A stretch of DNA of 63,773 bases, the filler included, from Reclinomonas americana ATCC 50394 (taxonomy: Eukaryota): NCBI GenBank assembly GCA_048213135.1. It is 6 parts of 6 records of this genome, joined end to end, with 100 filler letters (N's around TTAATTAATTAA, not from the genome) between each part and the next. Parts side by side here need not be neighbours in the genome. Positions count along the whole stretch, not along the records: positions 1 to 28,969 come from PS015559.1; 5 more parts are not named here. One strand, 5' to 3'. Under the pieces are notes generated by a model. That model had not been told where the DNA came from and searched no databases. It saw only the letters and a program-made list of their open reading frames with translations. Shown in pieces: positions 2,814 to 62,666 of this stretch. Both the position numbers and the translations under genes were made by a program. The first letter of the stretch is position 1; each line of letters starts with the position of its first letter.

Positions 2814-3445
2814 GCGCCACCAAAGCGCGAAGCCTCCCCCGTCCCTTTAGGGGCTACCCTCTCTACGGCGACTCCAACAGCGAACTCTGTGTGTGTGTGT
2901 GTGTGTAAACTCGGGAAGCATTTTCCGTCGTTGCGTTCACTACGTGGCCAGTGATCCCACTCGTCGCGAGACCATGGATGCCAGCAGGAACAAGACAAGT
3001 GCCAGCACAATCCACCATCCACTGTGCTGATAGTTGCGCGAACCGGCCCACGACTCACTCAGAGTCGCATCCTAATCAATCACATGATGATGATGATGAT
3101 GATGATGATGCGCGCAAAGAGAGATTGTGAAGTGAGGTTACCTTGGGGAACGCCTTGCGATTGGACTGCAGTGAGAAGCGTGACGGGTACACGAAGCTGT
3201 GTCATGCCAGTGAGCGAGTGTGAGAGAGAGAGTGTCTTGTGTGTGTGCGTGTGTTTACAACGCAACTCCGTGGCCCAGCTCTCCAGTCCAGTGGCTGCTC
3301 TCTTGTCCGACTGTGCACAGGCGAGAAGTGAGCAGGCAAACAAGAGAGGAAGACACGCGTGCGCTCTCACCATTCTGTTGTTACGAGGAGGACAACTCGT
3401 CGTGTCCCTCTCTTGCAAGCATAACACCACCATGCACCGACGCAC

Positions 3446-5178
3446 ATGCTGGGCCTCGACTATTACAGCAGCAGTGACAGTAACAGTGACAGCAGCAGCA
3501 GCAGTGACGGAAGAGACGATGAGGTTTGCCTTCTCTCTCACTCTCACTCTCACTCACGCACTCACTGTGCATGGACAGCGCGAGGCACTGCTGACACTGG
3601 GCAAACGCGCACGAGGTCACCAGCGCATGCTCCCACCCTTTTTCTCTTTCCTCTTGCTCACACAGTCCGCACAGAGGAACAGTCGTCGCAGCAGCAAGAC
3701 AAGAAACGCGCTTGTCATCGACGATACGTGTCCAAAGCAGAGAAGAAGACGACCTCTTCGTCTTCCTCCTCGTCGTCTTCCACTGGAGCTGTCACTGGAG
3801 AAGCAACTGTATGGGACTCGGTGAAACGCGTGTGGGAGAGCGCACTCCCCGCGTTGGCGGAAGACGAGGAGGAGCAAGTGCACGTGTCGCGATCCCTTGC
3901 GCGTCGACTGGCCAGCTGTGTGCCGCTGAATGTCGACGAGCCTGTGCATGAGCTGGTGGGACACAAGGCTGGTGTCAATCGCGTGCTGTGGTCGCCCGAG
4001 TCGGGGAGGCTGTTGGCCTCGGCCGGCAACGATGGCACTGTGCGATTGTGGGATGTGTTTGACGAGGGTGTGCGAACGCGACGAGTCAGGCCGCTGGTCA
4101 CGGTGGAACTGGGTGCAGTGGGCGTGCGAACGGTGGAGTGGATGGTGGGCGATGAGGCGCGGCGTTTGCTGGCCGTGTTGCATGGGCAGTCGGCGGTGTC
4201 GTTGACCGACATGGAGACTGGCGTGCTGGTGGAGGTGCGAGATGAGGCCCTGCGCGTTTCTGGTTCAAGTCGCCCCTCACCTGTGTGTATGTGCAGTCCT
4301 TTGCCTCGCGCTCGGCGGCTGCGTCGTCGACACTGGCCGCCACTGCGCTTCGCTGCTCCGACACGCATCCGCACCTCTTCCTCGCCGGTTACATGCGAGA
4401 CGGCATGCTCTTGTGGGACACGCGGGCCAGCGCCACAAAGCCCGTGCGGCCGTTTGCGGTTCGCCGTCTTCTCCCGTGGTCGATGAACGAGTTTGCGTCA
4501 CCGAAAACTGTTCCCCCACCAACACAGGGCCACTTTGGCACGCTCCACAGCGCCGATTTCACCGCCGATGGCAGCACTGTGATCTCGTGCGCAGACTTGC
4601 CACGCACCACCGTGGTGAATCGCGGTGTGGTGTCGTGGGACTTTGGCTCCGGCGTCATCATGCACGACCAGTTTTACTTGGAGGGCTTCACCTGCACGTG
4701 CGTGCGGTTGCATCCTGCCGGGCGCAAGTTCTGCTTGCAGTCGCACGGCGACTACATTGCCATTATCGGTGCGCAGCCGCCACACAAGCTCAACAAGTAT
4801 CGGGTGAGTGGTCAGTCGCTCTCCAGCTCTCCCCTGTTCTCAAAAGTCACTGAACTCGCGTTGTCAGCGCTTTGAGGGCCACAGTGTCGCCGGTTTCAAC
4901 ATTCAGTTCTCGTTCAGTCAGAACGGCGCCACCATCTGCACCGGTTCGTCGGATGGCTCGTTGCACTTTTACGAGTGGGACCCGCAGCCTGGCTGCGCTG
5001 TCCAGCAGATCCGGAGAGTGAGTTGGCGATCTCTTCGTGTCGCACACCGCTCGATCCAGAGCACTCACTCGTGCCACAGGCACACACCGAGGCGTGCACC
5101 GATGCACAGTACCACCCTCTGCTGCCCTCCACTCTGGCGTCGGCCGCGTGGGATCACCGCGTACTCCTCTGGCAGTAA
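3446..5178 (+). CDS. WDR25: WD40-repeat protein 25-like, multi-exon
   Basis: Acidic N-terminus MLGLDYYSSSDS, RRYVSK, LVGHKAGVNRVLWSP...LLASAGNDGTVRLWD, WDFGSGVIMHDQFYLEGFTCTCVRLHP, KYR|RFEGHSVAGFNIQFSFS, AHTEACTDAQYHPLLPSTLASAAWD...WQ*. These match the recognisable WDR25 signature blocks. Confidence 0.85.
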
Positions 5179-9012: not shown

Positions 9013-12000
9013 TCAACTGTCGAGTGACTGACCCGAGGGCGATCGGTCAAACTGTCCCATTTGCTGGTCGTCTTGCAACTCAAAATCGCCGTCGTTCGAC
9101 TCCACGTCCTCCTCCATGCCTGGTGCAGGGAGAGAAAGGGGTGAAGGTGATGAGGAAAACATGAGAATGGGCACCAATAAACAGTCTCATGACAATGATA
9201 CCTGCGCTGTCGACAGCCACAATGGCGGCCAGCATTGCCGCCGCAAAGTCCTCGTACGACGGCAGCTCAGGCACCTCCAAGTGATGGAAGCACGTCTGCG
9301 CATACAGACGGCCTGCTCGGACGAGAGGAGAGCGCGTGTGTGAGGCCGAGTAGCTGCTTCCTGGAGAAACACGAGGGACGCAACTCGAAGGGAACACGGT
9401 GATCTTCTGTTGGAAGCCACCGTACGGAATGGCAATCAACGAGGTGCACAGACGGAGGAATCGTCGCAGAGCTGTGAGTGACGCTCTCCCCATTGAGTCG
9501 CGCGATCACGACGAAGAGCGACAGCGCCCCACCAATAAAACCGCACACACACACCTGTTGAATCGCAATCACGCAGGAATCTCCGCGCATAGTCCGGGGT
9601 CGGTGATCCTTCGGGGAAGGACGACGAGAAGACCACATTCTGCAGCACCATGTCCGAGTCCAAGTAGTCCTCGCCGCACAGCAACAACATGAGCTCGGTG
9701 CAGTTGAGACCCTTCAGCCACAACGACATGTTGACGCGTGTGAAGCCGCGCTTGATGGCCTCCAGATGCTGTTTCCGGCAGCCAATCAACTTTTCGTAAA
9801 TCTGTGTGGACCAGAGGAGAGTGAGCGAGGTCGTACTTCTTTAACTTCCACAAGAAGCAACTGCAACCGCACCTGTTTCCTCACGTACTCGTACTTATTC
9901 TCCTCGCTCAGCTCCTTCTCTTCACCCGTATCACTGATAAAGTGCAAATACGTCGGCTCCGTGATCGTCTTGTGCAGCACGTACTCGCGCAGGTTGTGTG
10001 CGTATTGCGGATCGTACAACTGCGAGGCGTAGAAAGGTCAGCTACTCTCGAGCACACACACACATATCAATATGCGCGGCAGCCAACCTCCAGATCGGTG
10101 TACGACGGGTCAATGTCGAGCAAGTACTTGAAGAGCGACGGCGCAAATCGCGCGTGCACCGGGCGGTTGTCGATGAGGCACTTGAGCAGCGCCGCGCCAA
10201 CACTCTCGTACGCAAACTCGGCGTCGGTGTTTGGCACCGGCAAATACAACTCGCTGTCTGGGTCGGCACCGTTGATGCCACACGACGCCTCGAACAAGCT
10301 GCAACACAACACAAGATGAGGACACCAAGCTTGGATAAAAAGTGCATTTCACACGCCGACGTACCCCAGCTTCGGATCGAGAACACGCGTGAAGAATTCG
10401 GTAAACATGTCGTCCGACACGGCACCCATGTCCTCGCCGCTCTCGCCACTGTCCTCCAGCAGTTGCGTGTGCAGCGGTGCCAGCATGTCTTCGTCGAGTG
10501 TCATGGCGCTAAAGACCTGCCGCGCGTGGAAAAATAGTAGGGTTGTTAGATATTACACATTAGTGCACAACCGACTCGCACGCGTGTGTGCGTTCGCACC
10601 TCCACCACGTCATTGACAATGTGGGCCCGCGACACGGTGAGCTCGATGGGTGGGATGTCGCGGGACTTTTCGTCGCACACCTCGCGAATCTGTCGAATCT
10701 TGTCGTCGCTGTGTGCCGACACGTGAGTGCACACAGACAGACAGACACACGTGAACACTGAAGCACGGATCCGCACCTGCGAATCAAGAAGCGATCGCGG
10801 TGCAGCATGTGCGCATGCGGGGTGGAAAAGTACGGATGAGCCAGCAACTCAATGGCACTTGGGCGGTGACGCGGATCGATGGCCAGCAGGCGGCGAAGCA
10901 GTGACCTGCGATGTTTGAAAACGTCAGCGAGGCGCGACACCAGCACTCTTGTGCGACACGCCCGACTCACCTCAGTTGCGCAAACATCTCATCCGTCATG
11001 TCGCGGCGAAGGTTCTCTCGCAGTGCATCCTTGTCGGGGATCTCAATCTTGCCAAACAGGCCAGTGGCGGCGCCCGGTGGGTTGCCGAGGGACCCAGAGC
11101 TGGAGCGACGGGAGATCTTCTGCTGTGTTGTGGTGCGTGAGTGCACTGCCACGATAAGAAACTAGGAAACTGCGAGATCCGCACACGTGCCTTGGTCCGC
11201 GGTGGCGTGGTCGGTGTAAAGTAGTTGGTAAACACACTGGAGGCGGCCAGTGGCGTTGCGTAAATGACGCTGTGTGCGTCGGACTTGGGACGTGGTCTGT
11301 TTCGGGCGAGGCAAGGGTCAGTCCCTATCCCATGAACGGAAGCACAGCATCGACGCAACGAATCCTCCAGCGGCCCGAAGTGAGCCTCCAAAATCATCAC
11401 ACCGAGACTCCACATGTCCGACTTGTACGAGGCACGCGACGACGACATGGGCGACGACGATGACGAAGACGACGACGGATTCGACTTGCTCTGTGAGATG
11501 CATGAGGAGAGAGCACGGGAAATGCAATGGAGACAGGCAGAGTGCACGAACCGAAGGTGACAGCGAGCTGCTGGCATCGCTTCGAGATCGCCCGGCCGAC
11601 GAGCGGATGTGCTTGCCCTTCTTCGAGGAGCCCGACAGCGAGCGTGCATACATGGGCAGCAGGACCTCCGGCGCCGCAAATGGACGCGTTCCAATGAATT
11701 CACCTGCGCCGACAGTGAGTTTTCAGGGGCGGGGTTGGGATGCGAAAGCAGCAGGGAGAACGCAACTGGTGCGCGAGTCGCGCAGAATACTCTCGGTGCG
11801 CGCGAATCCAAAGTCGGCAATCTTCGGCGTACCCAGTCGCGTCATGAACACATTTTCTGGCTTCAGATCACTGTCCACTGCCGTCAGCATCCAATCACAT
11901 GACACTCGCGTTCCCCTCACTCTCTTTCACAAACCGATGCACGATGCGCTGACTGTGAATGTATCCGACTCCCTGCACAATCTGACGGAACACACACTCC

Positions 12001-15000
12001 AGCTCCCACGGTGTACGCTCGCCGGAACTCATCCACTCGCGCAGCGTTCCGCCCTGCATTTCCGATTGAGTGGCGGAGCTGGGATGACAAAGAGAGCGAG
12101 AATGTGTGCCACTTCGTCACCTCGTAGTACGGGAACTGAATGTAGGCTTTCTGCCAGTCGCGACCGCCCTTTGGCCGATCCTTGAAGACGGCCTCAATGT
12201 TGACCACAAATGGATGCTTCAGCGACGACAAGACGCAGGCCTGCACGCACCGAGTTACAACTCGGTGTTTCACATGAATGCAGTGAAATCGACACAAACC
12301 TCGTGCTCGAGCAGCGCCTCCTCGGAACGCGAAAACTCCTTCAGCACAGTCAGTCGACCATCGCCCTTGAGCTTGGCCAGGAACTGCGAGCGGCCATTCA
12401 TGTGAGCTCAGCATGACATAAACATCACACGCCAGGAGAACCAACGCACCACAGCGCGTCGCAGTTCACGAATAATGTCGTAATCTTCGGAGATGCGCCG
12501 CCGCACGAGAACTCCTGAGCGCACCAGTCGCTCATCAGCTGCCGCATCGGCCTCCAGTGCTCCACACAGCACCACCGTGTCGGCATGGGAAATGGAGAGG
12601 GCGCGAAGGCGCGTAGAAATGCTGCAAGTGCGCACACGTGTGTGTCAGCAGCACATTTCTATGTGGAAGTGACAACGGGATGCACTGTGTACCTCTCCTG
12701 CTTGCGAGCAATCGCCGCGACCTTGTCGCGCTGCTCATCCACTCGCGCACTCGCCTGTTACATTCGCGAATAAGCAACAAATATGATGCGCGCCACAGTG
12801 GTGGTGACACGAGACAAACCTCGGCCAGCGTGTTGGCCGCGGCACCATTCAACTCCATCTCCTTCAGCTCGTACTCCATGCGATTGGTACGCTTAAGCTC
12901 GTCGATCCACTGCGCCTTGAGACGAGCCTTGTCCTTGATCAATGTCAGAATCTCAGTACGCTCCACGTCCTCACGCTCCAGCGACCACATCATGCTGCGG
13001 TACTGCGCAAACACGTCGCCCAGCGACACCACCTCACGACGATGCTCAAAGTACCTGCGCGGAGGCCGATCAGAAGATGCACGACACGGAGGGACGAGTC
13101 AACGGAGACACAACTTGTACGACACAGAGAGCAACATGTCGAATGCGCTGGCACCCCACTTCTGCAAGGCTGCGTAGCGCTCGCACTGGATGGTGAGTTG
13201 GTTCTTGTATTCGCGCATCGTGTGCTGCACTGCTCGGTGTTGCTCTGTGACATGGATCCCGATGAACAAAGAAGAGTGTGGCTGTGAGGAACAATGGAGA
13301 TCACCACCACACCTTCTTCACACGCCGTCAGCCAGTCTTGGAACACTTTAAGCGTGTGTGTCAGCTCCTCCGCGGTGCCATGCAGCGACGACGGATACTC
13401 CGATGAACTACTTCCGCAACGTCAGTCTGAAAAGCGAAGACGGAAACATCGCCACCATTCGCCCGAGCTCACCTGCTCAGTGTCTCGGCGTGTTGCGACG
13501 AAAGCAGGGAGCACAGCTCGAGAACAGCACCGCATGCAGCTGCCGCTGTGTCCGAATGGGCGACAAGAGCGCCGAGTCGCTCACGGCCAACGCTCCTGTT
13601 TTTGATGCCGACAGTTTCATCAGCTGACACGACTCTTCTTCTGCATGGCGATGCATACACACCTCAGCTCCTGGATTTCCACGGCGCGGTTGTACAGTGG
13701 ATTGTCTTCGCCGATTGGACGCGGAGTCATGGGTGTGGTGGGGACACCAAAAGTCGCTACTATCGCGACGAAACACGGTGAGCACAACTTGAGAGGCGCA
13801 AATGGCACTTAGCGAAACAACTAAACCTTCGTCGCGTTCCTCGAAATCATCATTCAGGGGGGCGGACTCGCCGGGCGAGCCGAGTGGAGTCGGTTGCGAC
13901 GACGGCGACAACAAGAATTCGCGCAGATCGCGCCGCAGATTGTCGCGCAGCTCATACGAGTGCGCAAGGACGTCTTCCGGTCGACCCGCATCACCCTGCT
14001 GTTGCGCATTCAACGCAAACAGACTCTCGATCTCGTGCAACATGGTCTGCGCTCCCCTCGGCGGTCAGTCAGAGCACCTACTTGCTCACAGACACAAATG
14101 TACACACCTTGTGCGACTGCAGGTATGTAAACAATGCGTCGGTGCGACTGCGATGTCGCTGCATCTCTGCCTCCTGCAGCGACAGCTCGCGGCCCAATGC
14201 ATCCAGGCCACCGACCGGCAACTCGTCCTCGGTTTGTGACGGGGCACAGCTCTCGTTGATTTCTGCGAGACTCGGATCAGGTACATGATACGGAACCAGC
14301 ATGCTGCGCATTGTGTACCTTCGTAGCCGAGATTGAGTAGTGTGAGCGAGCACAAGTGACGCACCAAGAGGTGCGACGACGAGGCTCCGGCACGAATGCA
14401 CCCCAAATCCATCCACTCCACCAACTTGGTGCACTCCATTTCTGCGGATGCCGACAAATGAGCACCGTGCAGCACCGCACCTCACAGTCACACAACCATA
14501 CCAGTAAATGACACATGCGCCAGGCACCACGCGGCAAGGGCATGCACGCAGGTCGGGTACGTGGCTACGGCGAGCGGGAGGCACAGCTTGCGCACCAGCT
14601 CCTCGTTCCACCGCAGCGAGAGCGATGCAGATGCGTCCGAGTGGTAGCACAATTGTCGGAACACACTCCAGAAGGGTCCGTACGGAGCCAGACGTTGCTC
14701 GTGGACGTCTGTAGCACAGCACAGGAAAGGAGAAGGGTGATGGGTGGTGAGCATCGGAGCACAGCGGGATAAGACATTAAGTGACGCACTCATGGGGAAC
14801 AAGAACATGACCACTTGGCAGGCCAACAGCTGCGTGTCCTCCATCACCAGGGCGGTGCATTGCGCAATCTTCTCCACCACTTGCAGCGACCGCAGCAGCG
14901 GTACACACTCGGCTGCACAATTCGTCAGCAACTCTCTCCTCTCTCTCTCTCTTCACAAAAGAAAACCACCCACGACGCAACGTTCCAACGCAATGTTGCG

Positions 15001-17192
15001 CAGTGTCTCCAGCATGCGCAGCTGGATCGTGTTCTCGGTGCTGTGCAGCAGACGCAAGAGCAGCGAGAAATTCTCGTCCAAACAAATGGAGGCCCGCAGC
15101 GAAGGCACTGCATGGCGTGAAAAGTGAGCGACGCACACTTACAGGCATGTCAACCCGCGTAAATCGCACGCAACTGCGCTCGGAAATGTTGCACAATGCT
15201 TGCACGGCTTGCCGATCGACCTCCGAGTCCTTGCAGTTGAGCAAGAGCAGGAGAGAGTTGACGGCTTCGCGACCCATGTCCTTCAAGTATGTGTTGCATT
15301 CTGGGTCGAGTGGACGAATTAGCATTAACGGAGCACGTGACAGTTGCATGCGCACACACCGTCAGTGATGCAGCAGAGGGCCGCGGCAGAAGCTCGCTGC
15401 ACACGAATGTCGGTGAAGCGCGCCACGTTCACCAATGCATTCACGGTTCCCGATTGAGCCGTATGTAGTCGACCGGCCGCTGTTACCGGATGACAGTGAC
15501 GAAATGTACTGAGAACAAAGGAGGAGGGGCAGCGACGCAACAAGTGGCCACGAAATTCAGAATGACGCGCATGGCAAACACCTTGGTCTTGCTGTCGTCG
15601 ACGCCCATCAGTCGCGAGAGGGTGGACGATGGCAGGTCTCCCGACACATCTGCAACACGGGTCAGCTGGTGAATGCATAGAAATTCAACCTCGTGGGAGC
15701 GTCACACCTTCCCGGGTCACTTCATACAACGCTCGTGCCAGCTCACGCATGGTGGGCGTGCCGTTGGCAAACTCCACCGCCGCACACAGCGCCGAGAACA
15801 GACCCTTAGCCAGCAGTGTGCGACTGAAACCCGACACCGACAAGTTCGCAATGCACTTGGCCGTCTCGCCGACCACACTGGTGATGCGGTACTCGGGCGC
15901 ATCCGTCATGCACGTCTGCGAGTGCACATCACGATGAGCGGCAACTCAATGTATACACACAACGAGCGAATTAGAAAGAGACCTCCACGTCGCTCCAGTC
16001 ACTCGGCACACGGAAACCCGCACGCTCGCGTTCCCTAAACGCCTCGGCGCGATTCAGGCCACGACTGTCGAGACTCTCATCATCACCTGCACCGTTGCCT
16101 ACGACGCTGGCGGTGGCGGTACTTCCGTGACCAGCGAGCGTCCCTCCCACCGTGCCGGCCACAGACACACCACTGGCCGTCGGTGGGGCGCGACGAATGA
16201 ACGAATCGGGCGACGTGGGCGACGTCGGCAACGGCGGTGGCGACGACGCAGCCGTGTGCGAGCGCATGGACGCCACGGCAGCAGCGGCACCCTCTGAACT
16301 GCGCCACACCTCAGCCATGTGATCTTCGCGACTGCATGATGCGAACATGGTCAGAGAAGCGATCGCTCCATTGTGAGAGTGAGCGGCACGACTGGCGGCA
16401 ACGCACCGACTCGGCGTGCCAGTGTGACGACGCGGCTCCTCACGCATACCAGTGAGCGCGGCCATTTCTGGCGACGCAGCATCCCGCAGTGCGCGCTGTA
16501 TCTTTTGCGGCAACTTTGGCGTGCTCGCCGTCTGCACTCCGTGCGGTGCCGCTGACGACGACGACGACGGCGAGAGGGCCGAGGAGATGGCATTCAGAGA
16601 GTGCGACGGATCCACGAGTACCGCATGCGACTCATCACTGTGCATGGCGTTGCTGAGCAACGACGTCAACGTCTCGCACGTATGCTGCTCCGCGCTGCGC
16701 ATATCGCCCGCGGCCGCCGCAGTCGCCGACACCGACGAGGCCATGAGCGCATCGGCACACGCATCAGTGCAGCACAAGTACGACAAGGTGTGCGCCGCCG
16801 ACAACAGCATCTCCACATCGGTCTCCTCATCGCACACCGCCAGCAGCGCCTCGTGGCCACCGACTTTCAGAATCGTGGCGTGACAGTCGACTGCATGCAC
16901 ACACGATGAGAAAGCGATCGGAGAGGGAGCGGAGTGCGACGAAGTACCGTTCTCCGCCACTCGCGCCAACGCCTGCACACCGGTCTTGCGCATCGCCGTG
17001 TCATCGCCCTCACGAATCATGTTGACCAGTGACTTGGCGGCCGACACGCCCACGGTGCGAAAGTGACCGACCTGACTCGACATGTTGATGAGCGCCGAAA
17101 TCGCCGTGCGTCTCACCTCCACATTCTCGTGCAACGACAGTGCCGCGATCGGATCCACGCCCCCAAACTCCACCAAGTTGAGGCATGCGCCA
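9013..17192 (-). CDS. Giant ARM-repeat + coiled-coil + protein kinase + HECT E3 ubiquitin ligase (5' exons lie on the inverted contig 18031-18442)
   Basis: ARM repeats (GGVDPIAALSLHENVEVRRTAISALINMS; VNSLLLLLNCKDSEVDRQAVQALCNIS) at ~14300-17190. Kinase (TVLKEF, LKHPFVVNI, HR|DLKPEN, KIADFGFAR, GTRPFAAPE, SDMWSLGV, RPSAIELLAHPYF) at ~10820-12490. HECT (IELTVSRAHIVND, ESVGAALLKCLIDNRPVHARFAPSLFKYLL, LRRFLRLCTS, LYAQTCFHHLEVP) at ~9200-10720. The junctions I traced stay in frame. Confidence 0.8.
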
Positions 17193-17236
17193 CCTGCATC
17201 ACAGAGTGAGAGACGGNNNNNNNNNNNNNNNNNNNN

Positions 17237-17309
<73 letters not shown>

Positions 17310-17404
17310 TCTCAGCCTCCTGCTCAGCTGTGCATTTCTCCTTTGCATTGTCTCTTCTCCCTCCCCTCTCCTCCCTCCCTCCCTCCCCTTCCTCTCCACC
17401 AACG

Positions 17405-17953
17405 CACCAAGGATGCCATAGGCCTTGGGTCCCCTCTGCAAGCCGCCGACATTGCGGCAGCCATGGTTGACCATCTCCATGAGATCACGCATCTCCTTGC
17501 GAGAGTACTCGCCCGGATCCGCCACAATCTCCAGATCCGTGAGGTTGCCCGCACCCTCTCCCATCGTCGCATCTCCACTACCACCACTACCACTACCACC
17601 AGCAGCCGCAGCTGCAGCACCAACAGCAGCCGCAGACGACGAACCGGAATCGCCAGCAGATTGCGGAAGATCTGTCTCCACAATCTGTGAGCACACAACG
17701 TCGCGCCACTCTGTCATGCACACACACGCATAGACAGAGACCTGACTTGGCCACTACTCGCTCAATCTTGAGCACGCGAAACGTGCGTCGTGCATGTTCC
17801 GTTCCAACCAAGTAGTACCTCTGCACACAACAGACAGACATGATGATGATTGTGCGCACAACTCACACACTGCTGCAACACACACACACTTACTTGCGGT
17901 GTCTCGTACAAGACAAACTTTTGCAGGCAAGAGGTCACTGGTGGCAAACGCAT
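17405..17953 (-). CDS. FIG4: FIG4 N-terminal exons (on a mis-oriented contig)
   Basis: MRLPPVTSCLQKFVLYETPQ|RYYLVGTEHARRTFRVLKIER...DLEIVADPGEYSRKEMRDLMEMVNHG...KAYGILG matches the FIG4/Sac3 N-terminus (QKLVLYET.RYFLVG...YRVLKIDR). Confidence 0.88.
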
Positions 17954-18030: not shown

Positions 18031-18368
18031 ATGAGTGCGCCTCACTTGCGGCGCCCGTCCATGCCCGGACTGAGTGCCGAAGACCTGCAGCAAGTGGCCA
18101 CACAAGCGCGACCTCTGTTGCGCACAATGAAAAAAGTCTCTCTCTTGCTTTGTGTGCCGACTCTCACACTGCACACACACACGCACACAGAAAGTTGAGT
18201 CGGAATGTGGAGGCTGCGCGAGTGGAGGCACTGGATGGCCGCGTGCATCCGCTCATCTCACTGGCGCGCTACTCCAATGTGGAGATACTGAAGGAGGTGG
18301 CGCTGGCCCTCGCCGATGTCACCAAACACGGTGCGTGTCTGCGCCACACACGTGCACACACACACACA

Positions 18369-18416
<48 letters not shown>

Positions 18417-18442
18417 GCGACAGACGAACGAGGCGTCGACTA
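18031..18442 (+). CDS. N-terminal exons of the ARM-repeat protein (on a mis-oriented contig)
   Basis: MSAPHLRRPSMPGLSAEDLQQ...|LSRNVEAARVEALDGRVHPLISLARYSNVEILKEVALALADVTKH|DERGVD is an ARM repeat of the same style as those at 15000-17190. Confidence 0.75.
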
Positions 18443-18768
18443 NNNNNNNNNNNNNNNNNNNNNNNNNNNNNNNNNNNNNNNNNNNNNNNNNNNNNNNNNN
18501 NNNNNNNNNNNNNNNNNNNNNNNNNNNNNNNNNNNNNNNNNNNNNNNNNNNNNNNNNNNNNNNNNNNNNNNNNNNNNNNNNNNNNNNNNNNNNNNNNNNN
18601 NNNNNNNNNNNNNNNNNNNNNNNNNNNNNNNNNNNNNNNNNNNNNNNNNNNNNNNNNNNNNNNNNNNNNNNNNNNNNNNNNNNNNNNNNNNNNNNNNNNN
18701 NNNNNNNNNNNNNNNNNNNNNNNNNNNNNNNNNNNNNNNNNNNNNNNNNNNNNNNNNNNNNNNNNNNN

Positions 18769-21700
18769 TCCATCTCGATTGTGCTCATTGGTCGCCGCTC
18801 GCGCTACTTTGCCGGCACTCGGTACCTCAAACGTGGCATCAACGATCAGGGCCACGTGGCCAACGAGGTGGAGACCGAGCAGATTGTGTACGACTCGTCG
18901 TCGGTGAACGAATTCGAGCGCGAGGGCGTGTTCACGTCGGTGGTGCAAGTGCGTGGCTCGGTGCCGGTCTACTGGTCGCACGATACACAATCGAAGGCCA
19001 TTGTGGCGCCCAAGCCCACCATTATCAGTTTCGTGGACACAACGTGCAGTCAACGTGGTGGTGGTGGTAATGATGATGACACTCACATACTCTTCATTTC
19101 GACAGTGGGCCGCTACGATCCGCAATGCACGGCAGCGCGTCTCCACTTCCAGGATCTGTTCCGACGCTACGGCATGCCAGTGATTCTGCTCGATCTGCTG
19201 AAACCACAGGAGAAGAAGCCGCGAGAGATGCCGCTGGTGCGCGAGTTTGACGAGCTGGTCAATTATCTCAACCAGTTCCTGCCGGCCGAGAAGAAGATTC
19301 AGGTGACTTGCACTACGACTCTCCCACCGACTTTTCCACTCCTCGTGACTCACTCACTTGCTCTATTTGCAGCACATTTCGTGGGACTTCCGCGGCGCCG
19401 CCAAACGCAACCTCGGTCGCGCACTGACTACGATGGCCGTGATTTGCGAGGGAGCCATTTCGGAGACCAACATTTTCCGCTCCAAAGTGATTGTCGAGCG
19501 CGCGGACTGGCTGGAGGAGAGCGGACTCTACGATTTCTCCTCGCAGCCGTTCGAGGGATACACGTTGCAGCGTGGCGTGCTGCGCACGAACTGCTTGGAC
19601 TGTCTCGACCGCACCAACATTGCGCAGTTTTTGTTTGGCAAGTCGGCGCTCGCGCACCAGGTTTGATCGCACCACCATTCATGCGTGTTATGGTTGTGGG
19701 TGCGAGTCATTTCGTCTTACACTTTGACGCTTGTGCGCAGCTGCATGCACTGGGCGCCTTCTCGCGCGCCTCGTTCGTTGGTCACGAGGACATTATTCAG
19801 GCGCTGATGGATCTGTACGATGAAGCCGGTGACAATTTTGCTCTGCAGTACGGCGGCTCACGCACCGTCAGTGCCGGTGTGCATCACCGCGGCGTCAGCT
19901 GGGACATTCTGTCCAACATTCGACGATTCTACAGGTGAGTGTGTTGCTGTGCACGCCTTGCATAATCTGTTGAGCTGACAGCCGTGTGCGACAGCAACAA
20001 CTTCTTGGATCCGGAGAAACAAGAGGCCATCAACTTGTTCCTCGGACACTACGTGCCGGAGATTGGCAAGCCGCACTTGTGGGAGTTGCCTACGGATTTC
20101 TATCTGCACAACACTGCCACCGAGTTTGGCGAAGGATCGGAGAGTATGCAAGTGTTGCGTCGGAGCGGAAGCGGGGTTGGGACAGCAAGGATGTGCGCTC
20201 ACTTCGTGCCGCAGACTCCGTGACGACTGGTGGGTGCGGCCGAATGAGGAATTCGAGGACCCGCACGCATCGCTCTTTTCGCGCATCAATCAGGAGGAGG
20301 GTCTCGCCGGCGTGGCGACATGCACCGAAGAGCAGCTGTTTGACAGGCCCAAGGACGACACGTACTTTGAGCAGGCGCACCAGACGCACAAGCTGACCAA
20401 CTTTTACAAGTTGTGTTCCACTGCGACACAGCTATCTGCTTTCCTTTACCCACTCGCTCACGTACACACTCAGGCGCTTGCTGGTGCCCTACGAGAAGCG
20501 GCTGTCAGTGGCGCGTGACAGTCGAGCGGCAAGTGCGCATCATGCACGATCTTCGTTTCGTTTCCCCCCGGTGCACTGCAGCTGCCGTTGTACTCTCCTC
20601 ACTGGCATCGCACCACAGCACCAAGGGTCGCATGGCGGCCGTCTCCATCATGCCTGCTGTCATTGACGAGGACATTCGCCAGCGATTCGCCATTGTGAAC
20701 AGGATGACCAGTGCTCATGATGTTTCGTCACGCCACGTCAGCATTCTGTGGCGCGCATTGATGCTCACCGTTGTTCGTGCCTCGCAGGATTCGTTGTCGT
20801 TTATCGACGAACCGGAAGACGACAGCATGGAAAAGTATCGCGCGTACGCACACGCCAGTCGTCACGAAATGGTGGAGACGGTGAATCGGTCCTCCGAGTA
20901 CGAGTACTTTTTGTCGGGCACGCGCACTACGGCAATGCTGGCTGTTGCGTACCCGTTGTCGACCAAACCAGGGTGGACAGTTTGCTGAAGGGATGTTCCC
21001 ACTCTGATGTGCAGACTGGTGGCCAGAGTCGAGGCATCTCGGTGCTTGCCGGTGCCATGTCGCTGGGTCACACTGTGGTTCGTGTCGTATGGCGGTGATT
21101 GGGTGGAGCCTGCTCACTGACCTGTGCTGTGTGCATCGCGCAGCAAGGAGCCAGTCAGTTCAGCGGCGTGAACGCGGTGGGCGAGTACTACCAGAAAATG
21201 TACGATCGGTTCCTGGCGCCAGAGATGTCCCCTGATATCGACGACCTCAAGGTGCGTGTGTGTGTGTGTGCGTGAGAGTGCTTGCAGCCCTTGACCACGA
21301 CTCTCATTATTTCCTCGTTCTGTTGTGCGTGTGTCAACACAGCGCTTTGACGCGTACGCCCGCGCGGACCAGGCCGGGCGATATGTCATGGGCACAGTGC
21401 CGCTCAGCGTCGGAGTGTGCGTCCCACCCCCTCTCATTGTCACCCCCCCTCTCTACGTATTGATCTCACCTGGTGCGCAGTGAGTTCCAAAACACACTCG
21501 ATACGCTGCGTCGTGAGGCCGCCGTCGACTACCGAGTGGGCCTGTCCAGCAGCGCCTCGAGCTCCACGCTCTACGAGGACGGACTGCTGGCTGTATACGG
21601 TATTTCCTACAGGGACGAATGTGTTACGCAGTGACGGTGTTTGACCCTTGCGTGCGCCATGCAGGCGAGGAGCGCGATGACGACGAAGACGAGTCCACGG

Positions 21701-28759: not shown

Positions 28760-29013
28760 GATGTGCATGTGTGTGCGCTCTTCTCTTGTGTATTGTGTCT
28801 CTGTCATTTGATGGCAATGCTGTGTTTCGGCTATCGTGCGCGCGCGCGTTGTCTGTGACATCTCACACACAAGAAAGGAAAAAAAGACAGACAAGAAAAA
28901 CGACGCGGCAAACGCGCAAAGAAGAGAGAGAGAGAGAGAGAGAGAGGAGGACGCGGCGGAAGGAAGACGNNNNNNNNNNNNNNNNNNNNNNNNNNNNNNN
29001 NNNNNNNNNNNNN

Positions 29014-29025
29014 TTAATTAATTAA
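29014..29025. other. Artificial scaffold spacer TTAATTAATTAA (also at 32954, 53764, 57580, 62169)
   Basis: Identical 12-mer with stops in all six frames, flanked by equal N runs, occurring five times. Confidence 0.97.
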
Positions 29026-29070
29026 NNNNNNNNNNNNNNNNNNNNNNNNNNNNNNNNNNNNNNNNNNNNT

Positions 29071-32760: not shown

Positions 32761-33402
32761 TCGAGTTCCACCTGCCTTTCTTGCATCCTGCCACTTACTC
32801 TTGATCCTTATGGTGGCGCAGCCCCGATCTCCACCGCCTTGCCCTTCACACACACACACACACACACATAGCAATCAACTTCCGCTCCCTCCTGACCTCA
32901 TCATTCATGNNNNNNNNNNNNNNNNNNNNNNNNNNNNNNNNNNNNNNNNNNNNTTAATTAATTAANNNNNNNNNNNNNNNNNNNNNNNNNNNNNNNNNNN
33001 NNNNNNNNNTGAGTACGCTCACTGTAACTCTCTCCACTGCCTCTGCCAGAGCAAGCACCTGTCAACGCACTCATCTCAACCTCTTTCTCCACCCCTCTCT
33101 CATCTCAGTCTCTCACGTTGCGTGCCTGCTAATCCCCTCGACACCTCTCAGCACGCGACGCTTGAATCTCGCTATCTCTCACTCACTCTCACGCATACAG
33201 AAAGCTGCCTGACAGCTCGCTCACAGTCGCTCTCTCCACTCCCCTCTGCCAGAGCAACCGTCCCACATGATTAATCACTCGCTTCAAACCGCATCACGCA
33301 ACACACAAAGTCTCTCTCTCCACTTCGCCGCCTACTGCTATCTCTCCCTTCCCCTTCCCTTTCCCCCTTCCCCCCTCCCTCCCCTTCCTCCTTCCCTCAT
33401 GC

Positions 33403-35188
33403 CCACCGAGTCATCCTCCGACGCCACCGCCAGCTCATCCGAATCCGCCTCAAACGGATTCCACTCAATCGAGGTAATGGGCCCGGCGTGATACGCATGC
33501 CCGCCCACGGGCTGGAACGACGGCTGGCGCGCAATAAACTTGCGCAGATCCCACACCTTGAAGGCACCATCGTCGCCGCCCGAGGCCAGCAAGTGCGCCT
33601 GATGCCTGCACTCCAACGAGTGAGAATGTAGAGGGACGAAACCACCACAAGACGGCTTCCTTTGACACCAACCTGTTCCATGAAATCACATTCACGTCGC
33701 TGTCGTGCGCCTGCACCGTCAGCTGGCACTTCTTTTCCCTGGTGTCCCAGATGCGCACGGTGTGATCGGCCGAGCAGGTGGCAAACACGGTGCGCTCCGT
33801 CGGGCTCCACTGAATGTCCTCCACCGACGACTTGTGCCCTCTCCGAGCCGCCTCCACCTGCCATGCTCCGGCCTCCAGCGGCTTCCACACGCACACGTGA
33901 TTTGCGCAGTCGCCACTCGCGAACCTGGGGAGTCGGTGTGAGTCTCTCAAGATGGAAGGGAAAGAAGCGCACTGTGCAAGAGACGCAACAATCCCGGCGT
34001 CAGCAGACTCCAGTCCATCGCAAATCCCTCGGCGGCGTGCTGATGCGAGAAGAGTGGCGCGGGGTTGGCCGACTGGCGGTGCATGGGGCCGACCAGCGAT
34101 GCAATCTTCTCCGCAATATCCCACATGTAGACGTTGCCGTCCTCGGACCACGAGGCCACAATGTTGGAGTGTTGTGGCATGCACTAGGAGGAGCAGGTCA
34201 GCGACGCAAAAGCAGAAGGAAGGATGTGAGACGTACTCACCCTCACACGGTTGACAGCGCCAGGGTGCGGCACAGTGCGATGCTCCAGCACCGGATCATC
34301 GTCGACATTGTCACCCGTCTCGTCCTCATCGTCGCCTGCTCGCACACGTCAGGCCTTGTCTTGTCTATGCTTCTCTCCCTCCATCTCGCTCTCACGCAAC
34401 TATCCAGCGCCTCATCAAACTTGGTGCGATACAAGTCCGAGAACTTCATCACATACAGCATGCTGGCACCGTCCGCCGCCTGCGATCCACTGACCAAGAA
34501 GCCCGTCATCGGGAACTACACAAGCAGCAAGTGAGCAAGCGATGGCGAAGCCAACGTTCTACTACTACACAGTAACGCAACATTGACGCGGTTCTCGCCC
34601 AAATCGTCTCGAATGCAATCAAACGACAAGCACGGCCACTCGGCGGCCACCGCGTAGTAAATCTCGTACGCACTCGAGTCGTAATCAAGCACCTCGTCCT
34701 CGCCCATTCCCTGCGATCGGCGCCACACTGCGACCGGACCCTTTGCCTCCTCATCTTCCTCGTCGTCTTCCTCTTCGTCGACTGGAGCCGCAGAGGAGCT
34801 TGCACCTCCCCCCTCCTCGTCCTCATCGATTTCCTCATCGTCGAATGCCGCCGGTTCCTCTTCGTATTCGTCCTCAAAGGCATCCTCAAAGTTCGGCAAC
34901 TCGCCGTCGTCCTCCAAATCGCGTCTGAGGGGCGCGCGCGTGTAAACAAAGTGTGTGAATGTGCCGTGATGTGCAGATCTGCACATGCCCCCCGCCCCCT
35001 CTCACTCGCGCCCACACGCACTCTTCGTCGTGTTCTCCCTCGTCGTGCTCTAGTGGCTCCTCCGCGACATCACGCACAGAGCGTGCCACTGCATCGTCTC
35101 CGGCGGCTGCTCCTGCGCCGGATGAGGCAAAGGTCACTGCGCGTCGCTTCTTGCGCCCGGATGAGCCCTCTCCTCTTCTCTTTGGCAT
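33403..35188 (-). CDS. GRWD1: Glutamate-rich WD repeat protein 1 / Rrb1, 3'-partial
   Basis: FEDAFEDEYEEE, LDYDSSAYEIYY...EWPCLSFDCIRDDLGENR|FPMTGFLVSGSQA, EGFAMDWS, GHKSSVEDIQWSPTERTVFATCSADHTVRIWD, LLASGGDDGAFKVWDLR, HAGPITSIEWNP. Confidence 0.93.
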
Positions 35189-40724: not shown

Positions 40725-43700
40725 TCACTTGACGTGCACCCACCACGTCGGCGCCGTATCCACTCCTTGCGCGCGCTGCCTCTCCGAGCTCTTGGCCAGT
40801 CGGCGGTAGTGGTGCAGGACGGGCTCAGTGTAACCATTCGGCAGATCGCATCCCTCAAACACGAGGGCGAGGGCGGCACGCATGGCCAGATTGCGGTGGC
40901 TGACCTCCAGTGGCTTGTACGCGCGATCGCCGGCGTTTTGCTGATTGACCACACGGGCCATGCGCGCGAACGAGTCAAACACCTGCTCGGGGGTGACGAT
41001 TTCGTGCGCAAGCCAGTTGGCCACGTGCTGCGAGCTGATGCGCAGCGTGGCGCGATCCTCCATCAGTGGCACGTCGCTAATGTCGGGCACCTGACACGAT
41101 ACCGATTGAGTGGGCATCGTCGTCGATGTTCGCTGGGCAGCGCAGACTCTCACCTTCGAGCATCCCACACCCTGGTCGACCCATCGCACCACGTAGCCGA
41201 GCATGCTCTGCACGTTGTTGTCCAGCTCGCGTGCAATCTCCTCTCCACCCAGCTTGACATCGGCCGGCAGCAGCGGCGGCGACAGCAGGTCGGTCAGCGA
41301 CGCGCGCGGTCCGCCCTCCTTCAGCACCGCCTGCTTGGTGCGCACATCCACTTGGTGGTAATGCAGGGCGTGGAGAGTCGCGGCGGTGGGACTCGGGCAC
41401 CACGCGCAGCTGGCGCCGGCCGCCGGGTGGCCGACCTTGGTGGCCAGCAGGCCCTTCATGTCGTCGGGAGCTGGAGAGGAGAAGGAGGGGGAGAGATGAG
41501 AAGAGACGAGCAGAGAAGTGAAGAAGAAATGCCTCTCTCCCAACTCACCTGCCCACATGCCCTTGCCGATCTGGCCGTGCCCGACGAGACCGAGCGACAG
41601 GCCGGCGTCCACGTTGCCGTCCTCGTAGGCACGCATGAATGGTTGGCTTTTGATTTGTGCTTTTGGCAGCATCGCGCCGGCAATCATGCTGCGAAGGGGG
41701 AAAGGGGGTGTGAGAAGGAGAGGGAGAAAGGGAGGTAGGGAGGGAGGGAGGGAGGGAGGGAGGGAGGGAGGGAGGTAGGGAGGGAGGGAGGGGAGGGAGG
41801 GAGGGAGCGGAGGGAAGGGAGGGGAGGAAAGGGAGGGAGGGGAAGAGAAGGGGAATGGGAAGGGACGGAGAGAGGGAGGGAGAGGAAGTGAAAGGATAGG
41901 GAGGGAGTGAGGGAGTGAGGGAGGGAGGAAGCGATGGGGATAGATAATGAGTGTGACTGCGATCAGCGACTGCAGCATGTGAGAGCATGCAGTGAATGTG
42001 TGTGGGAGAGAAAGAACGAGAGAGAGAGGGAGGAAAGGAAGAAAGGAGAAAGGGAAGGGCATAGAAAGAAGGAGAAGCACAAGAAGATTAAGAGGAGCGC
42101 AGTCGCGGTGTTGGTCACTGCTGCTGGTGGCGGTAAGGAGAGGAAGAAGCGACGTCGGAACAAGTGAGTGAGAGGGAGCGAGAGTGAGAGAGAAGGGAGG
42201 GAGAGTGAAAGGGAGACGGAGTGAGTGAAGAGAAAGAGGGAAGATAGGGAAGGGCTGCGAGTGAGAGAAGGACAGGAGTACGCGTGAGCGTGTGTGTGAG
42301 AGATGGAAAAGAGTGGTAGGGAGACAGGGAGGGAACGGAGTGAGTGGATGTGAGACAAGGGAGGATGAGAGAGATGGAAGTGATAGCGATTGATTGCAAT
42401 CAGTGTGCGAGAGAGNNNNNNNNNNNNNNNNNNNNNNNNNNNNNNNNNNNNNNNNNNNNNNNNNNNNNNNNNNNNNNNNNNNNNNNNNNAGATGGAGAAT
42501 GAAAGATCGCGCCTGTGAGTGACTGATAACGTGTGGAAGAGTGCCGTGAGAGAATGCATGGGCGAGTGAGCGAGTGAGCGTAATTGTTGAGAATTGCCCG
42601 ACCTCTCCCAAAGCCACGAGACACTCACCTCGTGTGGATCTCATCGCCAGTGCGATCGAGGAAACCGGTGTTGATGAAAAACACGCGTTCTGCAGCCTCT
42701 GAGATGCACGCGGCAATGTTGACACTCGTGCGACGCTCCTCGTCCATGATGCCGATCTTAATCGTGCGTGGTGGCAACTCCAGAGCTGTGACGATGTGAG
42801 CGCATGAAGCGCAAGCCCTCCCGCCATCACTACGCGCGCACCTTCTTCCACCGCCGCAAAAAAGTCACACACAAACGCCACCTCCTCCGGACCGTGCATC
42901 TTCGGCTTGACAATGTACAGGCTGCCTGCTCGCAGATGGTGTCGCTCGGCAGCCGGCTTGCGCAGCTCATGGAGTGCCGCCACCGCAGACACCAGCGCTG
43001 CACAACCTCCGTATGTGAGAACAATCACACATTCCAACTTCTTCCCCTGCAAAGCACTCACCATCCAAAAAGTGCTCGGGCGTCGGCTCGCCATCTGCCG
43101 TGCACACAGCATCGCTGTACATGTGCAGACCGACGTTGCGAATGAGGAGGAGACTGCGACCCGGCAGCGCGAACGAGCGACCATTGTGTGGCGCCACGTA
43201 GGTGCGATCGGGTGCGAGACCGCGCGACACGGTGCGCCCGTCTTTGCTGAACGACGCCTCGAGCGTGCCCTTCATCAGACCCAGCCAGTTGGTGTAGCAG
43301 CGCGCCTTGTCACGCCCGTCCACCACCGCCACACTGTCCTCCAGGTCCATGATGGTGCTGAGCGCCGACTCCACCACCACATCGTACAGTCCCGCCCGGT
43401 GCGTGCGGCCAATCGGATGCTGCGGGTTGATGAGGATCTCCACGTGCAGGCCGTTGTGGCGCAGCAGCACGCAAGCGAGTCGCTTGGATTGTGCGTCGAC
43501 GCGGTAGCCCACAAATTGGTGCGTGTGTACCAGGCCTACATTGGCGTTGGTGGCGGTGCGCAGTTGCAGGCGATTGCCGTGAAGGACTGGAGGGGAGAGG
43601 ATGTGAGGGAAGAGGCAAGGGAAGAGAGGAAAGGAGACTGGACACGCACCGAATTCGGTGATGGAGCTGAACGGGGTGCCGCCCGTGAGTGGGAACGTGG

Positions 43701-45302
43701 CGGTGAGGAACTCCTCGACCTTGGAAAACACGGCTGCACCGCGTGCGGGGTTGTACTTGCCGTCGGCGTTGCGGCGTAGTGCGCCCTCCTCCGGCACGGC
43801 GTTGGTGCCGTAGAGGGCGTCCAGCAGACTGCCCCAGCGTGCATTGGCCGCGTTCAGGGCGAAGCGCGCGTTGTCAATGGGGCACACCAGCTGCGGTCCG
43901 GCCACGTCGGCCAGCTCCGGGTCGACGTTGGTGGTGGTCACCGTGCGCCACTGTGATGATGAGAAGGGAGATGAGAGGGTGGACAAGAAAGGGTCATGGA
44001 GGAGGAGGGGGTGAACCTTGGCGTCCTCCAGCGGCGCAATGTAGCCAATGTCGCGGAGGAAGAGGGTGTAGGCGGCGACGTCCATCGGTTTGTCGGCGTG
44101 GTCCTCGTGCCAGCAGTCGATCCAGGACTGCGAAAAGAGGGAAAGGATGAGGGAAAGGGAGGAAGGGGGGAAAGGGACGGGGGAGGAAAGGGGAGGAAAG
44201 GGAAAGGGAATGGGGGAAGGGGGAAGGAGGAAGGGGAAGGGGAAGGGGAACGGGAAGGGGAAGGGGAAGGGGGCAGGAGAGTTGCAGAGACGGAGGCAGA
44301 GCGGAGGAAATCTGACACACAGAAGTGGCTACTGAAACAAGTTGGAGATGACAGCAAACGCTCGTTGAACGAATTGTGTGTGCGTGTGCGTGTGTGTGTG
44401 CGCGCGAGAGAGAGAGAGCGAGAGTGACCACACCGTAAAATAAGACAAAGAGGGTGCAGTCGACCTTGCCGAGAACGAAGCGAAGACAGAAAGACGAATT
44501 AAGAGGAGTCAGCGATTAGGCGAGAGACGGGAAGGAACAGCCGATAGGACGATTGAATTGTGCGGAGAAGGAAAAGACTAAAGACAACAGCGAAATAGCA
44601 GTGAGGGCAGGAGAACCCGTTTCAGTCAGCAGAGAACTGTACTCCATCAAAGAGAAGTGGACAATTAGGCGAGAAAAGACGGAAGACCAGCAGGGAGATG
44701 GCAGAGAGGACAGAAGCGAGAACTGCACTCAGCCAAAGAGAAGAGGACAGACTGCCAAACAGCAGAGACGACAGCAGAGAGGGCACACGAAGGAATTCCT
44801 TACAAGCGGCAGAGAACTGCACTTAGCCAAAGAGTTGAGGACTGATCAGGCGAGGAATGAAGGAAGACCAGCAGAGAGGTGGCACAGAGGACAGAAGCGA
44901 GAGCTGCACTCTGCCCAGGAGCGAAGAAGATCAGGCGAGGAGGGAGAGCAGACAGCAGAACCAGAAGCGAGAACTTCGCTGATACTGCACACCCCCAAAG
45001 AGTAGATGACAGAAAGGATGACACCACTCAGTCAGCAGAGAGCTGCACTCCGCCGTAGAGAAGAGGACCACTTTCTTCCCCTCTTAGCCTCCTTCTCCAT
45101 TCCTCATCACCTGCAACTCATCACGCCGCTCCAACAACTCGCGATTTCGCTTCCCAAATCGCTGCGTCAAATCGCCCAACAATCGCCAAAACCGCTCCGC
45201 ACTCAACCCCGTCCCCGCCACCAGCTCATCACGCACAAACGACACCAATATCGGTTCCACACGGAGTCCACTGCGAAGAAATAATGAAGAGAATCTCAGC
45301 AT
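40725..45302 (-). CDS. glcB: Malate synthase G (bacterial GlcB type), 8 exons
   Basis: [166 protein letters not shown]. Confidence 0.96.
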
Positions 45303-61780: not shown

Positions 61781-62666
61781 ACGGCCTTCGTTGTGATGAT
61801 TGAGAGAGAATCGGAGGACACGCGCTCCGGGACGCGAAGTCTCGACTTTGTGTGGGCATCAGTGCGGTTGAGAAGCGCAATGGGTTAAGCGGATGTGGAA
61901 CGCTAAGTGGATTCAAGCTGCAATACGAGCAGAAAGGCCGCCGGTCAAGTGCGAAGTCATCAGCTGACTTGAATTGCTGCATGGTCTGTCCGTTCCCTCC
62001 CTGACGACCTTTCTCCCTCTCTCTCTTTCTCTCTCCTCTTCCTCCTCCTTGTCAACCTTCTGTTCTCTCCCTCACCTCTTAGTCCCCCTTCTCCTCTTCT
62101 CTCCCTTCCACTCTCTCTCTCTCTNNNNNNNNNNNNNNNNNNNNNNNNNNNNNNNNNNNNNNNNNNNNTTAATTAATTAANNNNNNNNNNNNNNNNNNNN
62201 NNNNNNNNNNNNNNNNNNNNNNNNAAAGGGGTGGTGATGCGCTCTCCGCAGACAAACACGAGGAAAAACAAAATAAACGGAAAACGACCCCGCGCCCACT
62301 GACGGTTACTCCTGCGTGATGCTCACGGGCATCGCATGCACACACACACACACACAATGCACACACAGATCGAGAGGGGAGAGAGAGAGACGAGGGGGAG
62401 GAGGAGGGAGAGCGCGTGCGTACCGAAAAATTCCGACCGCACTCCGTCCACCGGCAATCCATTGCACTTCATTCAACCCAACGACAGCCGCTCCAGCGTG
62501 TGATAGGGCACATGCCCAGCACACCTCCACATATCACCGAGTAGAAAGCGTCAAACGAGCGACGTAGAATGGAAAGAAAAAAGTGCGGGACAGACGTAGC
62601 TCGCGGGCACGGGATTGTCACCTTCCCACCCATTGTCATCGTGTGTGTTTGCGCGCGTGTTTGTGA

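Follow-up and report, generated by a model that had tools for sequence, protein, structure and literature searches.

A predicted kinase-HECT ubiquitin ligase of Reclinomonas americana with a probable N-terminal array of armadillo repeats

Combinations of a eukaryotic protein kinase (ePK) domain with a HECT ubiquitin ligase domain have been described in several protists. Parsons et al. (2005; PMC1266030) call LmjF35.4000 of Leishmania major a unique ePK, one that has a HECT domain as well as three TPR motifs, and Grau-Bove et al. (2013; PMC3673628) mention that some HECT proteins of Naegleria gruberi and Ectocarpus siliculosus also have kinase domains. TKUL/HECT12 of L. mexicana is described as a dual kinase-ligase enzyme in a preprint (bioRxiv 10.64898/2026.05.08.723729), which states, citing other work, that the kinase and the ligase activity are each of importance in amastigotes and that the ligase activity was reported to require autophosphorylation; a loss of fitness in the hect12 null mutant was reported by Burge et al. 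(2020; PMC7647121). The NEDD4, HERC, HUWE1 and TRIP12/UPL families are held to carry no ePK domain, which is consistent with what is said of them by Grau-Bove et al. (PMC3673628). We analyzed a 63,773-nucleotide stretch of DNA from Reclinomonas americana ATCC 50394 (assembly GCA_048213135.1), referred to here as the window, in which the minus strand between 17564 and 9013 carries a proposed gene for armadillo (ARM) repeats, a protein kinase domain and a HECT domain.

Phosphorylation and ubiquitin ligation also occur within one chain in plant kinase-U-box PUB proteins and in MEKK1, which has a PHD/RING-like domain. The E3 modules of these proteins are RING/U-box adaptors that form no thioester intermediate, and they are unrelated in sequence to the kinase-HECT proteins.

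Our reading of the locus, to which we give a probability of about 0.7, is that of one gene, whose product of approximately 2000 residues belongs to the protist family of kinase-HECT dual enzymes and has an ARM array as its variable N-terminal module. The core of this family, of which Leishmania TKUL/HECT12 is the best-known member, would here comprise a helical/coiled-coil segment, a Ser/Thr kinase of the ePK type and the HECT ligase. The gene model was built by hand on the minus strand from 17800 to 8881, coding-looking frames among the three being joined at canonical splice sites. The window is draft eukaryotic sequence of approximately 58% G+C with 17 runs of N, but none of these falls within 9013-17216, which leaves the finding reported here on unbroken sequence.

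9013..17564, minus strand: whole proposed coding region, 37 exons and 36 introns, 5994 nt, 1997 codons (three-frame hand model and dynamic programme)

The joined frame runs without an internal stop from an ATG at 17564 to a stop codon at 9015-9013, the lower end (9013) of the gene in the original prediction. All 36 introns are of the GT-AG type, 34 of them with a CAG acceptor, and 35 are between 56 and 87 nt long (median 66.5 nt over all 36). The product reads as ARM repeats followed by a helical/coiled-coil linker, with the protein kinase domain and then the HECT domain after it. The motifs cited in the original prediction (VLKEF, HRDLKPEN, DFG, APE and TCFHH) were all found on the minus strand where it had placed them, both in the three-frame views and in the joined model.

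A stop-free chain is by itself weak proof of a gene, and shuffled sequence in which introns of 45-130 nt were placed freely also yielded stop-free chains of 2.5-3.2 kb, with 55-65 introns. For this reason the kinase/HECT half alone (exons 20-37, introns 20-36) served to train a model of codon usage and matrices for the splice sites, and we used these parameters in a splice-aware dynamic programme, for which the 19 exons of the ARM/linker half were untrained. The programme returned one gene from 17564 to 9015, with the same start and stop as the hand model, and recovered exactly 29 of the 36 junctions (14 of 19 in the untrained part). Its score of 1433-1436 compares with 343 for the opposite strand, a ratio of about 4, and with 114-205 for 8 shuffles, a ratio of 7 to 13. 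Seventeen of the 19 untrained exons scored clearly positive in the frame of the model and negative in both other frames, the exceptions being exon 6 (-2.3) and exon 15, which was undecided at 0.5 versus 0.2 bits. The exon chain is far beyond chance. An artefact produced by chance open frames, misassembly or a decayed pseudogene would be in keeping with a draft assembly that contains N gaps and artificial contig linkers, and with the stop-free chains that enough introns force anywhere, but is rendered very improbable by the uninterrupted sequence, the score ratios, the introns of tight length and consensus, and collinear homology over approximately 900 residues.

The 5' end of the gene model comprises two features.

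17408..17564, minus strand: exon 1 with the proposed ATG (17564); codon score +30.5 bits in frame versus -37 and -42 out of frame
17194..17407, minus strand: intron 1, 214 nt, containing a run of (GA)n as well as an assembly gap of 20 N (17217-17236)

The gene probably starts upstream of 17192. The ATG at 17564 is tentative as the start codon because the frame stays open farther upstream. As a separate observation on the introns, the unusual donor GTTGCGT is found at 5 of the 36 (minus-strand starts at 15541, 15174, 14981, 11359 and 9384) and GTGCG at 7 others; the donor consensus of this organism seems unlike the common GTRAGT.

We examined the join between the kinase and HECT domains by comparison with databases and with related proteins. 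Queries of Pfam, of solved structures and with HMMER were single exons or exon-bearing pieces, and the joined model was compared by local BLASTP with 19 family proteins, one of which (P0018) is HECT-only. The features of this half of the protein are as follows.

10777..12485, minus strand: protein kinase domain, exons 20-29, residues 1237 to approximately 1600 (Pfam Pkinase on one exon and collinear high-scoring segment pairs, HSPs)
10709..10776, minus strand: intron 29, 68 nt, GTGCGG...CAG, phase 2; no other non-coding DNA separates the kinase C-lobe from HECT
9202..10708, minus strand: HECT domain, exons 30-36, residues 1608-1962 (Pfam HECT on three pieces; HMMER matches to exon 34)
9290..9292, minus strand: codon 9292-9290 of the HECT catalytic Cys1933 in TCFHH (aligned with the family Cys)

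Pfam HECT matched three exon-bearing pieces (E 2.4e-5, 1e-4 and 3.6e-7), and the catalytic Cys is found in the C-lobe. The last kinase exon, which bears subdomain XI, ends at 10777, and the first HECT exon begins at 10708, with no Met of its own ahead of the HECT N-lobe. The HSPs of the 18 kinase-HECT relatives are unbroken over residues 1562-1965 (approximate positions), running from the kinase C-lobe through the junction to the end of HECT, and in two relatives (P0043 and P0046) one HSP covers everything between the coiled coil and the C-terminal end of HECT (from residues 1124-1150 to 1947-1960). Because these HSPs cross the junction, we regard the kinase-HECT fusion as real and conserved. 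Judged by these alignments the kinase domain lies directly N-terminal to HECT in one polypeptide, and it is nearly certain that the predicted kinase-HECT part is found in one protein. A kinase gene that ends by read-through of intron 29, with a stop just past 10563, was considered and rejected: it leaves the HECT N-lobe without a start codon, and the junction-spanning HSPs contradict it.

To place the HECT domain among known proteins, we used its 82-residue exon (exon 34) in an HMMER search of 1.84 billion representatives, which gave 33 matches; 18 of these were scanned against Pfam. Eight of the nine matches of at least 588 residues carry Pkinase right before HECT, the HECT domain of the window protein thus being nearest to those of kinase-HECT proteins, and an Arm or HEAT match in Pfam was found in none of these nine. 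Ten further kinase-HECT sequences came from cluster members (4) and from a profile search among proteins of 1305-3725 residues (6, all of them TPR-Pkinase-HECT). The N-terminal modules of the 18 kinase-HECT sequences are TPR in 7, FYVE in 2 (one also with TIG) and RCC1 in 1; the other 8, of which four are short or truncated, have no recognized module. Relatives with a named source are from Tieghemostelium lacteum (Amoebozoa), Papus ankaliazontas (Kinetoplastea), Spironema sp. BW2, Eutreptiella gymnastica and Phytomonas sp. EM1. Judging from these domain matches, kinase-HECT proteins are present in Euglenozoa, Amoebozoa and other protists. The original prediction had implied that the kinase-HECT combination was new and possibly a lineage-specific module; neither idea is supported, given the 18 relatives and the proteins in print for Leishmania, Naegleria and Ectocarpus, which make the core both widespread among protists and already described. 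Other searches with HECT exons were negative: phmmer with a 70-residue exon found no solved structure at E<=0.1, and a word-index search with the 82-residue exon found no match among proteins of 145-2000 residues. Six metagenome loci (L001-L006) from a HECT-exon scan were discarded as spurious because only 14 residues matched and tblastn with the full model found nothing.

The kinase domain was identified by a Pfam Pkinase match on a single exon (E 1.3e-5) and by collinear HSPs in 18 of the 19 family proteins, the nineteenth being the HECT-only P0018. Its key residues are encoded as follows.

12339..12341, minus strand: codon 12341-12339 of the beta3 Lys1263 in VLKEF
11867..11869, minus strand: codon 11869-11867 of Asp1357 of HRD (in HRDLKPEN)
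11813..11815, minus strand: codon 11815-11813 of Asp1375 of DFG

In an alignment with 10 relatives, Lys1263, HRDLKPEN, DFG, APE and a Glu at the aligned alphaC position are intact. None of the three glycines of the glycine-rich loop is present, and GxGxxG is also absent from every aligned relative; the family pattern of a degenerate glycine loop beside a retained beta3 Lys, catalytic-loop Asp and DFG is found here as well. Two inserts, at residues 1396-1452 (Ser-rich) and at approximately 1474-1545, have no counterpart in the relatives; these could represent low-complexity loops peculiar to the lineage, or else exons that the model has partly wrong. As an alternative, the single gene might encode a pseudokinase whose part is confined to regulating or scaffolding the HECT ligase. 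The lack of glycines, the breaking of the C-lobe by two long inserts and the loss of HRD or DFG residues in some relatives (P0021 and P0035, for example) would be consistent with this. We consider it improbable, since all of the catalytic residues listed above are kept here and the degenerate loop is common to the whole family, including the trypanosomatid type, whose Leishmania member is reported, in the preprint cited above, to autophosphorylate.

The C-terminal end of the protein differs from that of its relatives.

9013..9119, minus strand: last exon, with an acidic C-terminal extension and the stop codon 9015-9013

Most aligned relatives end a few residues past a ...DG-F-x-x motif, and here a similar motif is followed by approximately 19 more residues. 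In other HECT ligases, C-terminal additions may impair catalysis.

Upstream of the kinase, the N-terminal part of the model carries ARM repeats.

14319..17193, minus strand: ARM-repeat region, exons 2-11, residues 53-817 (Pfam Arm on exons 2, 6, 7 and 8; solved-structure matches; exon phases)
15983..16726, minus strand: low-complexity Ser/Ala/Pro-rich stretch within exon 3, residues 190-437 approximately (open frame of 302 codons)

Pfam Arm matched 4 of the 11 N-terminal exons, the best match being exon 6 at 20.9 bits against a cut-off of 20.6. When compared with solved structures, exon 2 matched a designed ARM protein (E 1e-10) and Vac8 (E 1e-8); note that the Vac8 comparison covers exon 2 alone and speaks for likeness of the repeat unit. 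Exons 5-11 are uniformly of phase 1-1; exon 10 has 207 nt and the other six have 108-126 nt. Exons of approximately 41 codons correspond to about one armadillo repeat per exon, and the region shows the tandem array of Arm-like units, each some 42 residues in length, that is typical of armadillo proteins. No N-terminal exon had a Pfam match to TPR, the module found at the N-terminus of TKUL proper, and the exon pieces scanned gave no match to RCC1, which together with HECT characterizes HERC proteins. The Ser/Ala/Pro-rich stretch of exon 3 was without a match in the Pfam scan. The dynamic programme puts two additional introns in this stretch, which may contain unrecognized introns.

The ARM repeats are separated from the kinase by a linker.

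12486..14262, minus strand: helical/coiled-coil linker, exons 12-20, residues 818-1236 (three-frame model, codon scores, HSPs)

The two linker junctions traced in the original prediction were both recovered with the frame kept: NLGYE/EINES lies at 14319/14262 across a 56-nt GT-AG intron, and ETLSS/SSEYP at 13473/13410 or 13407, a GT-AG intron with a NAGNAG acceptor. The linker is conserved in kinase-HECT relatives from residues 1082-1174 (approximately) onward, where the HSPs start, so that a conserved helical/coiled-coil segment directly precedes the kinase start at 1237. The least certain part of the model is 13827-13410 (exons 14-15). Exons around and within it scored as coding in the frame of the chain (exon 12, +40; exon 13, +45.5; exon 14, +12.9; exon 16, +12.9 bits). 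A profile of the segment that precedes the coiled coil in the relatives gave a weak match to residues 1008-1058, at 7.1 bits, a value reached by 2 of 2000 shuffles, and there is no Met between residues 953 and 1058.

We also scored divisions of the locus into two genes. In the dynamic programme, splits with a spacer of at least 100 nt fell 15-49 bits below the single gene, and the best split in the 13830-13420 region with a spacer of 200-300 nt fell 23-32 bits below it. The longest non-coding stretch in the region of the ARM-kinase join is at most 87 nt, which leaves no intergenic room for untranslated regions and a promoter. Three further readings were considered and discarded. Read-through to 13479-13477 as the end of an ARM gene requires frame f1 over exon 14, which at -14 bits is not coding-like; introns of 22 or 39 nt that would rescue other frames near 13660 and 12440 are far under the observed minimum of 56 nt; and a zero-spacer split at 11897/11890, which gained 7.5 bits, is an artefact that cuts the HRD motif.

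Several points weigh against the reading of the locus as one gene for an ARM-kinase-HECT enzyme, beside the kinase loop without glycines. Exon 15 has no frame preference, the two acceptors that are not CAG (TAG and AAG) both flank exons 14-15, and read-through near these exons would give an ARM-only protein with a stop at 13622-13620 or 13479-13477. ARM repeats were found by Pfam in none of the 18 kinase-HECT sequences, and residues 1-1005 are covered by no relative's alignment in local BLASTP. The ARM-linker-kinase link is computational throughout, and the close relatives are two Logan contig fragments (97 and 245 residues), too little for a check of exon conservation. The presumed orthology of the Phytomonas protein P0047 to Leishmania TKUL is based on shared architecture and taxonomy, TKUL itself being compared by description, and the approximately 19 C-terminal residues extend past the usual HECT C-terminus of the family.

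Some of these points would be expected if the locus held two genes on the same strand, an ARM protein ending within 13830-13420 and a coiled-coil-kinase-HECT gene starting downstream, for example at the ATG at 13218 (Met1058). The undecided exon 15, the weak TAG and AAG acceptors beside exons 14-15, the two read-through stops and the lack of an ARM-bearing relative fit such an arrangement, as do the start of firm homology to the relatives at residue 1082 or so and the N-terminal regions of P0005 and P0010, which have no recognized domain. Two genes are nevertheless unlikely: the best split scores lower than the single gene, exons 13, 14 and 16 are coding-like in the frame of the chain whereas the f1 read-through over exon 14 is not, the weak profile match at 1008-1058 would place those residues in the segment of the family that precedes the coiled coil, no Met is found between residues 953 and 1058, and non-coding stretches are too short to hold the ends of two genes. 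Based on the codon statistics, the canonical short introns, the lack of intergenic room and the weak profile match, we consider the ARM-kinase join, and with it a single gene that includes the ARM part, to be likely. Of the single ARM, kinase and HECT polypeptide originally proposed, the kinase-HECT portion is thus strongly upheld by the junction-crossing HSPs and the ARM portion is upheld as probable.

The single-gene product was compared with its nearest described counterparts. It shares with TKUL/HECT12 (LmxM.34.4000; LmjF35.4000) and with P0047 and P0043 a coiled coil, an ePK with a degenerate loop and a C-terminal HECT domain, in the same order. The alignment with the euglenozoan TPR-kinase-HECT proteins (Phytomonas sp. 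EM1, P0047; Eutreptiella gymnastica, P0043) is collinear over approximately 800 residues at about 26-31% identity. The TKUL-type proteins have TPR at the N-terminus and are approximately 1300-1400 residues long, whereas the window protein has ARM repeats and approximately 2000 residues; the window protein also has the two kinase inserts and the C-terminal tail, which the TKUL type lacks, and has HRD where the aligned trypanosomatid-type proteins have HAD. The best total local score (313 bits) was obtained with Tieghemostelium lacteum KYQ89671.1 (P0013), which has the same coiled coil-kinase-HECT core but an RCC1 propeller as its N-terminal module in place of ARM, and which for this reason we liken to HERC proteins rather than to ARM proteins. 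The 'GL-Bikonta' HECT proteins of N. gruberi and E. siliculosus, compared by their description in PMC3673628, likewise have kinase domains. In the ARM/HEAT-HECT ligases (plant UPL3/4 and TRIP12/Ufd4), helical repeats precede HECT and, according to the same paper, are thought to recognize substrates, but these ligases, unlike the window protein, have no kinase domain.

What was observed is the architecture and the intact catalytic residues; with the Leishmania report as a model, we propose how two active domains may be coupled and what the ARM array may do. The ARM array would recruit partners or substrates. The kinase would autophosphorylate and thereby license the HECT domain, by analogy with TKUL, and may additionally phosphorylate bound substrates. 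Cys1933 of HECT would then accept ubiquitin from an E2 and hand it to the recruited protein. A role in defence, raised in the original prediction, found no support. The kinase-HECT core is already described, and the features that seem new are the N-terminal ARM module, its arrangement of about one repeat per exon, and the tail at the C-terminus. Taking this a step further, we tentatively suggest, as an idea about as likely to fail as to hold and perhaps a little more so, that the locus represents an undescribed ARM-bearing branch of the kinase-HECT proteins, in which an exon-per-repeat array of phase 1-1 was shuffled onto the coiled-coil-kinase-HECT core as a substrate-recruiting module and the acidic tail adds a further restraint on ubiquitin transfer, one that phosphorylation might control.

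The neighbouring gene, head-to-head with the ARM-kinase-HECT gene, encodes a FIG4/Sac1-like phosphoinositide phosphatase (18769-19938, plus strand; Pfam Syja_N, E 1.2e-42), the upstream part of which is masked by an N gap at 18443-18768. Its best database relatives show 44-51% identity and are spread over many lineages, indicating that no annotated relative stands close to this organism. Long (GA)n and (CA)n microsatellites at 17237-17400 and 18300-18440 lie beside assembly gaps in the divergent promoter region of the two genes. Elsewhere in the window, a long open frame at 42970-44328 (minus strand) is malate synthase G-like, with a Pfam MSG_insertion match (E 3.1e-8), more enzyme-typical motifs by eye and a (Pro-Phe)n low-complexity run ahead of it, and WD40 repeats were matched by Pfam in two open frames (3425-4483, plus strand, E 1.6e-8; 33468-34295, minus strand, E 6.9e-11). 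Rfam gave no family at the gathering score over the whole window on both strands. Five pairs of 44-N runs, with 12 nt between mates, occur at 28970-29069, 32910-33009, 53720-53819, 57536-57635 and 62125-62224; the three pairs that were read (28970, 32910 and 53720) enclose TTAATTAATTAA, which is a linker with stops in all six frames. These artificial contig linkers indicate that the window consists of concatenated contigs, and gene order across the joints need not be real.

Kinase-HECT proteins hold two major signalling chemistries in one chain, and their study is just starting, in Leishmania. The locus described here opens no new class of system. It suggests instead that the N-terminal targeting module of the family is swappable, with TPR, RCC1, FYVE and now ARM as its forms, and such an exchange of modules would help to delimit the conserved catalytic core. 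For comparative biochemistry, the locus also provides a family protein whose kinase has canonical HRD and DFG motifs in full.

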